Positions 33,196 to 40,357 of a stretch of DNA of 64,000 bases are shown piece after piece. A model generated the notes under the pieces. The model had not been told where the DNA came from. It searched no databases and was given only the letters and a program-made list of their open reading frames with translations. Position 1 is the stretch's first letter; every line of letters starts with the position of its first letter. This DNA is from a virus: the IMG/VR virus record IMGVR_UViG_3300020474_000993. One strand, written 5' to 3'. Position numbers and translations under genes: made by a program.

Positions 33196-33308
33196 TAGGA
33201 TTCTTAGAAAGAGTATTCTTCATTGCTTTAGGTTATTGGTTAGCAAAAGGGATGCCAACACCAGATTGTATATTTGGTTGGTGTCAGACAGTAAACACAA
33301 CGACATAA
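33192..33308 (+). CDS. small hypothetical protein (38 aa)
   Basis: ATGA overlap with upstream gene. Confidence 0.45.
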   Translation: MIGFLERVFFIALGYWLAKGMPTPDCIFGWCQTVNTTT

Positions 33309-33319
33309 GGAGAAACAGT

Positions 33320-33412
33320 ATGGTGTTTGAGTGCTTCATACAGATAGCATTAGCATTTATTATTGGATATCTTATAGGAAAGTACAGGGGAGATGGTGAC
33401 CATTATGCCTAA
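33320..33412 (+). CDS. 30-aa membrane peptide
   Basis: AAGGAG RBS; MVFECFIQIALAFIIGYLIGKY... Confidence 0.5.
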   Translation: MVFECFIQIALAFIIGYLIGKYRGDGDHYA

Positions 33413-33557
33413 AAAACATGGTGTAAAGGTAAACATCGTAAACAGTCTGAGTCGCTCTGAGACAAAAAGGAATAAACGACATAGTAATAAGACAATCAGA
33501 CAGGCAGGGAGAAGAAGTTCTGTGCTTGAACTGAGAGGGGGGAAAAGTGGGAAATAG
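33405..33557 (+). CDS. 50-aa basic peptide
   Basis: MPKKHGVKVN...; overlaps previous stop. Confidence 0.4.
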   Translation: MPKKHGVKVNIVNSLSRSETKRNKRHSNKTIRQAGRRSSVLELRGGKSGK

Positions 33558-33565
33558 TGGTGATG

Positions 33566-33645
33566 TAAATCCGCGTGAGGGCAGGAGTGAGCGCCGCTGC
33601 CCGACTAAAAAATCAGACACCGCTGCCGCTCCCAGACGCGATTTA
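33566..33645 (-). ncRNA. candidate ~80-nt hairpin small RNA / origin transcript
   Basis: Starts just below the leftward promoter; stems taaatc-gcgt/acgc-g-gattta, gagcg/cgctc, tgtctga/tcgggca (G-U pairs only on minus strand). Confidence 0.45.
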
Positions 33646-33650
33646 AAGAG

Positions 33651-33679
33651 ATCATACCATAGGCAGTGGCAATTGTCAA
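33651..33679 (-). promoter_or_regulatory. leftward sigma70-type promoter
   Basis: TTGACA-17-TATGAT on minus strand. Confidence 0.7.
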
Positions 33680-33752
33680 GCGAAAGGCGCCCTCTATGGA
33701 CACAGTGGCAGGAGTGGCTCTGATCTTTTTTCACATAAAACGAAAATAATGC

Positions 33753-33781
33753 TTGACAAGTGCTTATCTAATGTGTATAAT
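33753..33781 (+). promoter_or_regulatory. consensus sigma70 promoter
   Basis: TTGACA-17-TATAAT. Confidence 0.8.
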
Positions 33782-33858
33782 AGGGTGTTCCCTTTAAGAA
33801 GAGTAATGGCTGCTGCTAAGTCATTGATATATAAGGGAATAATAAAGTAAAATAATCC

Positions 33859-33887
33859 TTGACATCTGGTTCGTACTGTGTCATGAT
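33859..33887 (+). promoter_or_regulatory. early promoter driving structured RNA
   Basis: TTGACA-17-CATGAT, preceded by inverted TAAGTCATTGATAT box. Confidence 0.75.
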
Positions 33888-33897
33888 CACTAAGTAA

Positions 33898-34290
33898 TTG
33901 AGATGAGGAGAGACCATTGAGTTGACAATAGATTAAACCCCAGTTAAACCGCACCATCTCACCGTGATTGAGGTTCAGAAAGAGTGCTATCGGGGTCGGA
34001 TATGAATCACGGGGCCAATGTGAAAGGTGGCATGACCACGCTCCGCATTGACCAAGGCAGGGGGGACGCAGCCCCATCAAAAGGCGGAGAGACAACTAAA
34101 AGGAGAGTCCAGTAGCGAAATTGCAAGCCGGCAAAGATGCGTGAATGGACAGGGCAGTTCGCTGCTAACGGTGTGGTGACCTAATACACCCGCCGCTCCC
34201 CCACGGTTAGGGGAGCACCACCCAGCTCGAAGCGGCCTATGCTTTGGGATCGAGGTGGTCGCCCTTACAAGGGCATCTGGCATCCCCCCT
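33898..34290 (+). ncRNA. candidate large structured non-coding RNA (~395 nt), family unrecognised
   Basis: GC-rich, no credible ORF, about ten helices including long-range 34059-34069/34280-34290; begins at a predicted TSS. Confidence 0.7.
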
Positions 34291-34359
34291 AGTACATTGC
34301 TAAAAAAAGATTTTGCCCAGTACAGGATTGCCACACAGAATTTTTTTCGGGATATAATT

Positions 34360-34797
34360 ATGGCAGATATAATTTTTGATGTAGACGGCACTCTTATGGA
34401 TATAGAACATAGGAGACAATTCGTCACACAGCGTCCCAAGGACTTTAAATCGTTTCGTGAACATACCCAATTCGATACAAGGAAAGAGGACATCTTTGCC
34501 ATTGCGGATGCGTTACAGGCACAGGGTCATCGTATTCTTATATCTACTGGTCGTATTAAATCAGAACATGATATCACCGTTAAACAGATACGAGATGGCG
34601 GTATAGACTTTGAAGCAATATACATGCGTTCTGATACAGACTACCGTCCCGATGATGAATTAAAAGAAGGATACCTAGAGAAGATGCGTAGAGATGGTTA
34701 CAATCCTACTATGGCATTTGATGACCGTCAGCGTGTTGTAGATATGTTTCGTTCTAAGGGATTAACAGTATTTCAAGTGGCAGAAGGAGATTTTTAA
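34360..34797 (+). CDS. HAD 3'-phosphatase (C-terminal domain of T4 Pnkp/PseT)
   Basis: FDVDGTL, STGR, MR...D.RPD...K, FDDR..VV, GL.VFQVA.GDF. Confidence 0.85.
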   Translation: MADIIFDVDGTLMDIEHRRQFVTQRPKDFKSFREHTQFDTRKEDIFAIADALQAQGHRILISTGRIKSEHDITVKQIRDGGIDFEAIYMRSDTDYRPDDELKEGYLEKMRRDGYNPTMAFDDRQRVVDMFRSKGLTVFQVAEGDF

Positions 34798-40264: not shown

Positions 40265-40286
40265 TTAACACCTCCTGTATTAAGAG

Positions 40287-40357
40287 ATGCGTTCCTTCGG
40301 CGGAATTGCCTACTTCCGTCCACCGCTACATTTAGGGTGGATGAACGAATGTAGTCT
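40287..40357 (-). promoter_or_regulatory. glutamine riboswitch (glnA / Downstream-peptide family)
   Basis: CGTTCATCC...GGACGGAAGTAGG...CCGAAGGAACGC; upstream ctacatt can pair with loop aatgtag; sits in the 5' UTR of the YRG peptide. Confidence 0.85.

Follow-up and report, generated by a model that had tools for sequence, protein, structure and literature searches.

Introduction

To our knowledge, non-coding RNAs that exceed 300 nt and fold into multiple domains with conserved pseudoknots are rare. Large structured RNAs described earlier have proved to be ribozymes, ribonucleoprotein scaffolds or RNA-only assemblies. Among them, GOLLD (RF01998), ROOL (RF03087), OLE, raiA and IMES-1 are most like the RNA that we describe here: they share with it a length of several hundred nucleotides, multiple domains, pseudoknots, invariant loops and peripheral hairpins that can be expanded, and GOLLD and ROOL are, in addition, encoded by phages. 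The RNA described here nevertheless matches none of these Rfam models. It also differs from them in that it does not lie beside tRNA genes, is found in one marine T4-like lineage and forms part of a predicted early transcript, ahead of a phosphatase gene.

Group I introns of about this size, likewise rich in GC, are known from T4-like phages, where ORFs loop out from the peripheral helices. The introns of td, nrdB and nrdD, and that of cyanophage psbA, have in common with the present RNA that they form a GC-rich island of 250–600 nt in an AT-rich T4-like genome and that they tolerate large insertions in peripheral helices; one variant of our RNA is likewise accompanied by an ORF. Unlike these introns, however, the RNA has no RF00028 match, lies outside genes and has no recognisable P7 or guanosine site, and the ORF of the variant has no homing-endonuclease domain. 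The ColE1 RNA II and T4 oriF and oriG transcripts offer a different parallel: they are promoter-driven, folded and several hundred nucleotides long, lie in a non-coding control region and contain a G run and a C run. In the RNA described here, by contrast, the G run is not conserved, there is no analogue of the antisense RNA I, and the core contains pseudoknots and invariant loops.

A survey of phage sequences listed 10,006 candidate RNAs, among them the leaders of gp20 and gp32 (Fremin et al. 2023, PMC10690425). The cis-regulatory candidates of that survey, and riboswitches, resemble the present RNA in being fixed upstream of one gene, in covarying and in coming from IMG/VR-type contigs, but the RNA is much larger, has no recognisable expression platform and is followed by an unconserved spacer. 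We found no description of it in the literature; the 10,006 candidates may include it, as yet unrecognised. It is a new orphan family among large phage RNAs. Its minimal (~190 nt), standard (~390 nt) and expanded (567 nt) forms amount to a natural dissection that indicates which part to study.

Results

Genomic setting and promoters

The window is the 64,000-nt stretch of viral DNA analysed here (IMG/VR record IMGVR_UViG_3300020474_000993). It comes from a distant T4-like marine phage, whose RNase H is 42–45% identical to cyanomyovirus RNase H. The RNA locus is a GC-rich island at 33894–34290 on the + strand, with 52–58.5% GC as compared with 34–42% in the flanks. It lies downstream of a sigma70-type promoter and 70 nt upstream of a gene for a PNKP-type HAD phosphatase (34360–34797, + strand). 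The encoded protein of 145 aa consists of the phosphatase domain only (HAD_PNKP, PF25109, E = 1e-27; PHROG 'polynucleotide kinase'). The initial annotation of this DNA had pointed to a GC-rich island in an AT-rich genome, to a TTGACA-17-CATGAT promoter with a predicted transcription start directly behind it and to a position upstream of a Pnkp phosphatase gene, and each of these observations holds.

The promoter in question, P2 (33859–33887, + strand), has a TTGACA box, a 17-nt spacer and a TG-extended −10 box, CATGAT, which reads GATCAT in relatives. Its position and −35 box are kept in all relatives, and the −35 box and spacing are invariant in alignments A1 and A5. From the promoter sequence, the RNA is predicted to start near 33894, about 6 nt past P2. 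A second promoter, P1 (33753–33781, + strand), has the perfect sequence TTGACA-17-TATAAT and is kept in all types of the element (defined below); P2 lies 105 nt downstream of it, and P1 reads rightward into P2 and the RNA. We predict that the RNA is made from the first promoters to fire in infection. Because no intrinsic terminator was found between the RNA and the phosphatase gene, the RNA is physically a leader and formally a 5′ UTR. The P1 leader (33789–33858) has a feature of its own: a conserved hairpin, UUCCCUU...AAGGGAA, surrounds a mini-ORF of 14 codons (start ATG at 33806, stop at 33848–33850). Types B and H have an insertion in this leader.

The RNA gene is contained in a conserved non-coding region of ~800 nt with three promoters, and the RNase H gene is 6 kb away. 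Cumulative GC skew shows no inflection at the RNA locus, and no psbA gene was found in a 161-kb, 91%-complete relative, so that the phage may infect something other than a cyanobacterium.

Known RNA families and coding potential

At gathering scores, the 4227 models of Rfam 15 (which include RNase P, 6S, tmRNA, SRP, riboswitches, self-cleaving ribozymes, GOLLD, ROOL, HEARO, OLE, raiA, manA and wcaG) gave a single match in the window, a glutamine riboswitch aptamer (RF01739) at 40286–40349 on the − strand, with 60 bits against a gathering score of 35. Positions 33300–34500 yielded nothing meaningful at E ≤ 10, and the 567-nt type H RNA yielded nothing at E ≤ 5; neither Intron_gpI (RF00028) nor Intron_gpII matched the window locus (E ≤ 10) or type H (E ≤ 5). 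ARAGORN reported zero tRNAs over window positions 1–64000 and no tRNA or tmRNA genes in the window or in contigs L062, L076 and L077. The Rfam (E ≤ 10) and ARAGORN searches thus agree with the initial annotation, which had recognised no tRNA, tmRNA, RNase P, 6S or group I or II intron in the sequence.

No open reading frame across the RNA region stays open in any type. Minus-strand ORFs of 133 and 141 aa are present in the window and both break up in relatives, and the indels among relatives are not multiples of three. An AUG inside H1 opens a frame (33902–33919) of 5–11 codons; since its length varies and it is lost in type H, where the codon is AUA, it does not encode a conserved peptide. 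In type E, this AUG region precedes an ORF of 142 aa. The fold of the single sequence gains modestly over shuffled sequences on both strands (z = −2.4 for + and −2.15 for −), and the case for structure therefore rests on the comparison with relatives.

Distribution and architectural types

Relatives were identified through phosphatase-protein searches, exact DNA patterns and a covariance model of the 3′ core (R1). The element is carried by ~40 loci, all on marine metagenome or virome contigs of one phage lineage, with the same gene order throughout and one copy per genome or contig. These loci reduce to 11 distinct sequences and eight architectural types. The standard form of ~390 nt is type A (the window and L042). 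The P-b hairpin has a 21-nt insert in type B (L001 and L002), and the apex of P-a is cut down to a tetraloop in type C (L003); in type D (L004) the G run is altered jointly with its local partner. Type E (L005 and L049) has an ORF in place of the 5′ domain. An extra U in the invariant block distinguishes type F (L062), type G (L077 and L082) is D-like with a 45-nt insertion between P-a and P-b, and type H (L076) has an insertion of ~185 nt within P-a. The RNA is 378–567 nt long in types A–D and F–H and ~190 nt long in type E.

The phage lineage is represented on hundreds of contigs from Tara Oceans and other marine sources, and the phosphatase clusters that accompany the RNA have members on >100 contigs each, from which we conclude that the lineage is abundant. 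A scan of metagenomes with sequence patterns returned 12 true loci and two chance matches. Exact-pattern scans of IMG/VR with 3′ and 5′ motifs returned just the same five contigs (six further 17-mer matches were due to chance), and BLASTN in distant mode gave no match to the region among 50,697 phage records. The only pattern match in 185,579 prokaryote genomes was a chance match to an AT-rich Nitrosarchaeum contig, so no cellular homologue was found. With the core covariance model, neither divergent copies close to other PNKP genes nor second copies within the five phage contigs searched were detected. Between types, the RNA is 76–93% identical and the flanking genes are 78–96% identical. The RNA has therefore diverged about as far as its flanking genes, and its long invariant stretches reflect selection rather than recent ancestry.

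Covariation and strand

Compensatory double changes are seen in nine helices, at ~18 base pairs. Across the whole RNA, compared over five types, 93.5% of cells are paired and 15 pairs show double changes; 0 of 500 shuffles reach this score, and partners slid out of register give 39–51% pairing and at most five double-change pairs. The corresponding values are 99.1% and eight pairs for the 5′ domain (seven types) and 95.1% and seven pairs for the 3′ core (11 sequences), and in neither case does any of 500 shuffles reach the covariation score. Several pairs exchange G-U for G-C or A-U, for which the minus strand would have A-C mismatches. The exchanges fit the + strand only, and the RNA was assigned to that strand. 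In the periphery, some hairpins are exchanged for others, some shrink to a tetraloop and some gain 45–185 nt; they carry UUCG or GAGA caps, and the loops are invariant.

The substitution patterns show that the element is a real, structured, non-coding RNA of the + strand, with at least nine evolutionarily maintained helices. An undescribed, large and highly structured RNA had been proposed for this locus from the single sequence. The absence of Rfam, tRNA and tmRNA matches and the strong covariation among homologues from marine contigs bear this proposal out. Expression from an early promoter, also proposed there, is a prediction, and a ribozyme, a scaffold or an anti-defence decoy are candidate roles.

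The 5′ domain

The RNA consists of a 5′ domain, made up of helices H1–H3, and a 3′ domain. H1 (33900–33960, + strand) is a 6-bp stem, GAGAUG/CAUCUC, in which 33900–05 pair with 33955–60 to close a loop of 49 nt. Every alignment cell that contains letters is paired and the pairs never vary. The loop contains a nearly invariant 22-nt block, UUAAACCCCAGUUAAACCGCACC (33933–33954), with two differences in type H. H2 (33962–34012, + strand) is an 8-bp stem (33962–69 with 34005–12) with four compensatory pairs, its strands reading CCGUGAUU/AAUCACGG in some types and CCUGUGUU/RACACAGG in others, around a loop with the invariant sequence GGGGUCGGA. H3 (34013–34053, + strand) is composed of an outer stem, an internal loop, an inner stem of 3 bp and an apical hairpin GUGG/CCAC. 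The internal loop is a tandem G-A in types C, D, F, G and H, the inner stem varies between G-C, U-A and A-U, and the apical GUGG/CCAC is invariant. A local hairpin, GGGG/CCCC, follows at 34058–34077 (+ strand; 34060–63 with 34072–75); type D has GGCAG/CUGCC in its place, and types G and H have GAGG/CCUC.

The 3′ domain and its core

A Shine–Dalgarno-like motif, CUAAA(A)GGAG (34096–34105, + strand), is conserved in all types including E and has no usable start codon after it. The P-a element (34107–34150, + strand) is a GUCC/GGAC stem closing a variable hairpin, which becomes GCCC-AGUA-GGGC in type C; in type H, GACCC/GGGUC closes the insertion of ~185 nt. This insertion (L076:876–1062) matches neither Rfam models nor tRNAs. 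The P-b element (34154–34165, + strand), as read from the alignments, is the tetraloop hairpin GCAG-UUCG-CUGC with an A-U to G-C compensatory change, and in types B, D, G and H it takes the form GGCGG...CCGCC, with a 21-nt insert capped by GGGU-GAGA-CCC.

An H-type pseudoknot occupies 34170–34191 (+ strand). All of its cells are paired in the 11 sequences and both arms covary: S1 (34170–72 with 34179–81) has two compensatory pairs, and S2 (34175–78 with 34187–90, plus 34173/34191) has one. It is followed by P-d (34195–34216, + strand), a 7-bp stem (34195–201 with 34210–16) with two compensatory pairs in type E and an invariant 8-nt loop, CACGGUUA. Helix X (34217–34259, + strand) pairs ACCACC with GGUGGU (34217–22 with 34254–59); 77–79% of its cells are paired, with two compensatory pairs, and it encloses a variable insert and a nearly invariant block, GGCCUAUGCUUUGGGAUC (34234–34251). 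The RNA ends in a nearly invariant 3′ tail, GCAUCUGGCAUCCCCCC (34273–34289, + strand). Judged by complementarity, AUCCC of the tail (34282–86) can pair with GGGAU (34246–50) to form a putative second pseudoknot across helix X; both segments are invariant and thus provide no covariation evidence for this pairing. We also note a candidate kissing contact between CGGUU of the P-d loop and AACCG, both sides being invariant. The AACCG sequence occurs in the H1 loop of types A–D and F–H and in the unrelated 5′ segment of type E, where we estimate the chance expectation at ~0.07.

The comparison of types shows that the indispensable unit is the 3′ core of ~130 nt (34164–34290), which comprises the H-type pseudoknot, the hairpin with the invariant CACGGUUA loop, the 18-nt near-invariant block and the 17-nt C-rich tail. 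Upstream of the core is a conserved CUAAAGGAG motif.

Several helices had already been read from the window sequence in the initial annotation. Compensatory pairs support ccgtgatt/aatcacgg (four), gctcccc/ggggagc (two) and ggtgt/acacc (one), the last of which turns out to be one arm of the pseudoknot. Support from compensatory changes is partial for caatgtg/cgcattg and for accacc/ggtggt, with 77–79% of cells paired. Three further pairings are kept and are invariant, so that covariation speaks neither for nor against them: tgagatg/catctca (6 bp, with a mini version in type E), gtgg/ccac and the proposed pseudoknot aacccc/ggggtc. The remainder does not survive comparison. The long-range helix aggggggacgc/gcatcccccct, thought to close a domain of ~210 nt, is not conserved, as its C run is constant while its G run is absent in type E and, in types D, G and H, changes in step with a local partner; this joint change indicates that the G run forms the local hairpin instead. 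The 3′ partner of ggcgg/ccgcc is missing outside types A and F, gccct/agggc is mismatched in 5 of the 11 distinct sequences (types B, D, F, G and H), and agtagcgaa-ttgc/gcag-ttcgctgct is specific to the window, the conserved fold being GUCC...GGAC plus GCAG-UUCG-CUGC.

The type E variant

Type E, the form of one sister lineage, keeps both promoters and a mini H1 hairpin, GAGAU-GAGGGA-AUCUC. This hairpin is followed in order by the 142-aa ORF, covarying helices peculiar to the type, the CUAAAGGAG motif, the core and the phosphatase gene. The ORF (L005:2315–2743, + strand, and also in L049) encodes a Cys-rich protein and stands where the 5′ domain would be; its differences are distributed 9/6/19 over the three codon positions, a pattern indicating that it is genuinely coding. 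It has no Pfam domain, no PHROGs function and no Atlas match, and its neighbouring ORFs are without Pfam assignment or PHROGs function. The 5′ domain is found nowhere else in the 91%-complete type E genome. Retention of the core without the 5′ domain implies that the core is indispensable and that the 5′ domain is dispensable or replaceable.

The spacer and the phosphatase gene

An AU-rich spacer (34290–34359, + strand) leads to the phosphatase start codon. Its sequence is unconserved between types A/D/E and types B/C/F/H. The distance from the core to the ATG, by contrast with the sequence, is 65–75 nt in all eight types and on every one of the ~40 contigs. No fold masking the ribosome-binding site is shared among types: the mean unpaired probability of the site ranges from 0.27 to 0.58, and the structures differ per type. 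Sequestration of the ribosome-binding site was rejected on this ground.

The enzyme encoded beside the RNA presumably removes 3′-phosphates, judging from what is known of T4 Pnkp. In other phages, PNKP genes at 63–78% identity are preceded directly by an ORF rather than by the RNA, and phosphatase genes at 33–58% identity lack a GC-rich leader. Neither a kinase domain nor Rnl2 or psbA was found in related contigs; RegB and Rnl1 were not found either, though these are weak answers because control genomes were also silent. Given these results for RegB, Rnl1 and Rnl2, a complete RNA-repair pathway is not evident. In a different marine phage (L072:1501–3435), a homologous phosphatase lies two genes upstream of an ATP-dependent DNA ligase, which suggests DNA-end healing and hints that stand-alone PNKP phosphatases heal DNA ends, not RNA ends. 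In a separate scan of the 64-kb window for antisense targets, four invariant blocks formed no better duplexes than shuffled blocks did.

Discussion

Two questions raised by this RNA are (i) what it does and (ii) whether it acts on the gene that follows it. The explanation that we consider best, and which we hold tentatively, is that it is an autonomous, modular and lineage-specific RNA that binds a partner. Tandem sigma70-type promoters would place the RNA in the first ~390 nt of a transcript running into the phosphatase gene. Its core would be an autonomously folded module that uses its invariant unpaired nucleotides to contact a partner, either a protein of the host or the phage or a small ligand, and would act either embedded in the early transcript or after release by cleavage in the AU-rich spacer; an AU-rich segment behind a GC-rich fold would be well suited to release by an endonuclease. 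Accessory scaffolding may be the role of the 5′ domain and of the hairpins that can expand. On this view, the RNA is probably not a classical riboswitch in which the 3′ strand governs the ribosome-binding site of the phosphatase. The autonomous module is favoured over a classical riboswitch because the RNA is missing from more distant PNKP genes, the spacer and the ribosome-binding region are unconserved and no masking fold is shared. Against it, the core stays at a fixed 65–75 nt from the phosphatase despite rearrangements on both sides, which fits a role in cis as well; moreover, there is no terminator before the gene and all sequences come from one lineage.

The fixed distance and the lack of a terminator speak for a cis-regulatory leader, in which the core, as an aptamer or a protein-binding operator, would control how the phosphatase mRNA is translated, how stable it is or whether Rho-dependent read-through occurs; what it senses might be a nucleotide, an RNA-damage product or a phage RNA-binding protein. 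We regard this as a rather unlikely reading that still deserves serious attention. The distance from core to ATG holds through ORF replacement in type E and through exchange of the spacer, transcription meets no terminator on the way, and in its size, its pseudoknot and its invariant unpaired nucleotides the core is like an aptamer. For AUCCC of the tail, two partners are conceivable, the internal GGGAU and, in types A, D and E, a GGGAU of the ribosome-binding region; and the glutamine riboswitch in the same window shows that the phage uses riboswitches. Two features are expected of a riboswitch: a conserved, covarying aptamer directly upstream of a gene is present, but a conserved expression platform overlapping it (a terminator/antiterminator or a helix sequestering the ribosome-binding site) was not found. 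In addition, the spacer and ribosome-binding region are wholly different in types A/D/E and B/C/F/H, no shared fold hides the ribosome-binding site, the phosphatase genes of related phages are leaderless, and a conserved 5′ domain of 160 nt and expansions of 185 nt would be unusual in riboswitches. A self-processing ribozyme, or an RNA processed to 2′,3′-cyclic phosphate or 3′-phosphate ends and coupled to the adjacent 3′-phosphatase, is improbable in our estimation. Ribozymes typically share the size of this RNA, its pseudoknots, the invariant single-stranded nucleotides of its core and the variable hairpins of its periphery, and the neighbouring enzyme presumably removes 3′-phosphates; yet no Rfam self-cleaving ribozyme, RNase P or intron matches even at E ≤ 10, the sequence reveals no cleavage site, the association with the phosphatase is lineage-specific and the kinase domain, RNA ligase and RegB nuclease were not found in related contigs.

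Position within the ~800-nt conserved non-coding region with its three promoters, an RNase H gene 6 kb off and a G6 run followed 225 nt downstream by a C6 run, which is reminiscent of ColE1 RNA II, could all be accommodated by a primer or R-loop transcript at an origin, comparable to ColE1 RNA II or T4 oriF/oriG, with the fold controlling a persistent RNA–DNA hybrid. We give this idea slender credence, since the C run is invariant whereas the G6 run is changed in types D, G and H and absent from type E; nor is there an evident antisense regulator or an inflection in cumulative GC skew, and R-loop origins of the T4 type need no invariant loops or pseudoknots. The similar size and GC content of group I introns in T4-like phages, together with the ORF between 5′ hairpin and 3′ core in type E, bring to mind a degenerate group I intron or other mobile RNA element of which type E would be the ORF-bearing form. 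This is very improbable: Intron_gpI and Intron_gpII do not match at E ≤ 10, the ORF has neither an endonuclease nor any other Pfam domain, the element is single-copy and fixed in position, and it interrupts no gene, extending from ~6 nt past the promoter to 70 nt before an intact phosphatase ATG. Finally, the modest z-scores of the single sequence (−2.4, and −2.15 for the minus strand) and the minus-strand ORFs of 133 and 141 aa are what a protein-coding region or a chance GC-rich spacer without functional RNA might present. With no frame open in any type, the minus-strand ORFs breaking up, indels that are not multiples of three and ~18 compensatory base pairs in excess of all controls, we find this scarcely credible, and covariation effectively refutes it.

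If the core binds a host factor or a small molecule, it would represent a new phage tool for takeover or counter-defence in the ocean; if the effect of the RNA is confined to tuning a single phosphatase gene, it adds modestly to the known phage leaders. A bolder proposal, which we think unlikely, is that the core represents a new functional class of RNA, acting as a ribozyme or else sensing or sponging up a nucleotide-derived signal or an RNA-damage product, and deployed at the start of infection by an abundant marine phage lineage, and that the 5′ domain is an RNA accessory replaced by a 142-aa protein in one sister lineage.

The window holds another conserved segment. Directly downstream of a leftward promoter on the minus strand (TTGACA-17-TATGAT with a TG element, 33679–33651), ~190 nt within 33470–33680 are nearly invariant in all types, with conservation above that of the neighbouring genes. 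This block has no Rfam match; it may be a further non-coding RNA or a control element in the DNA.
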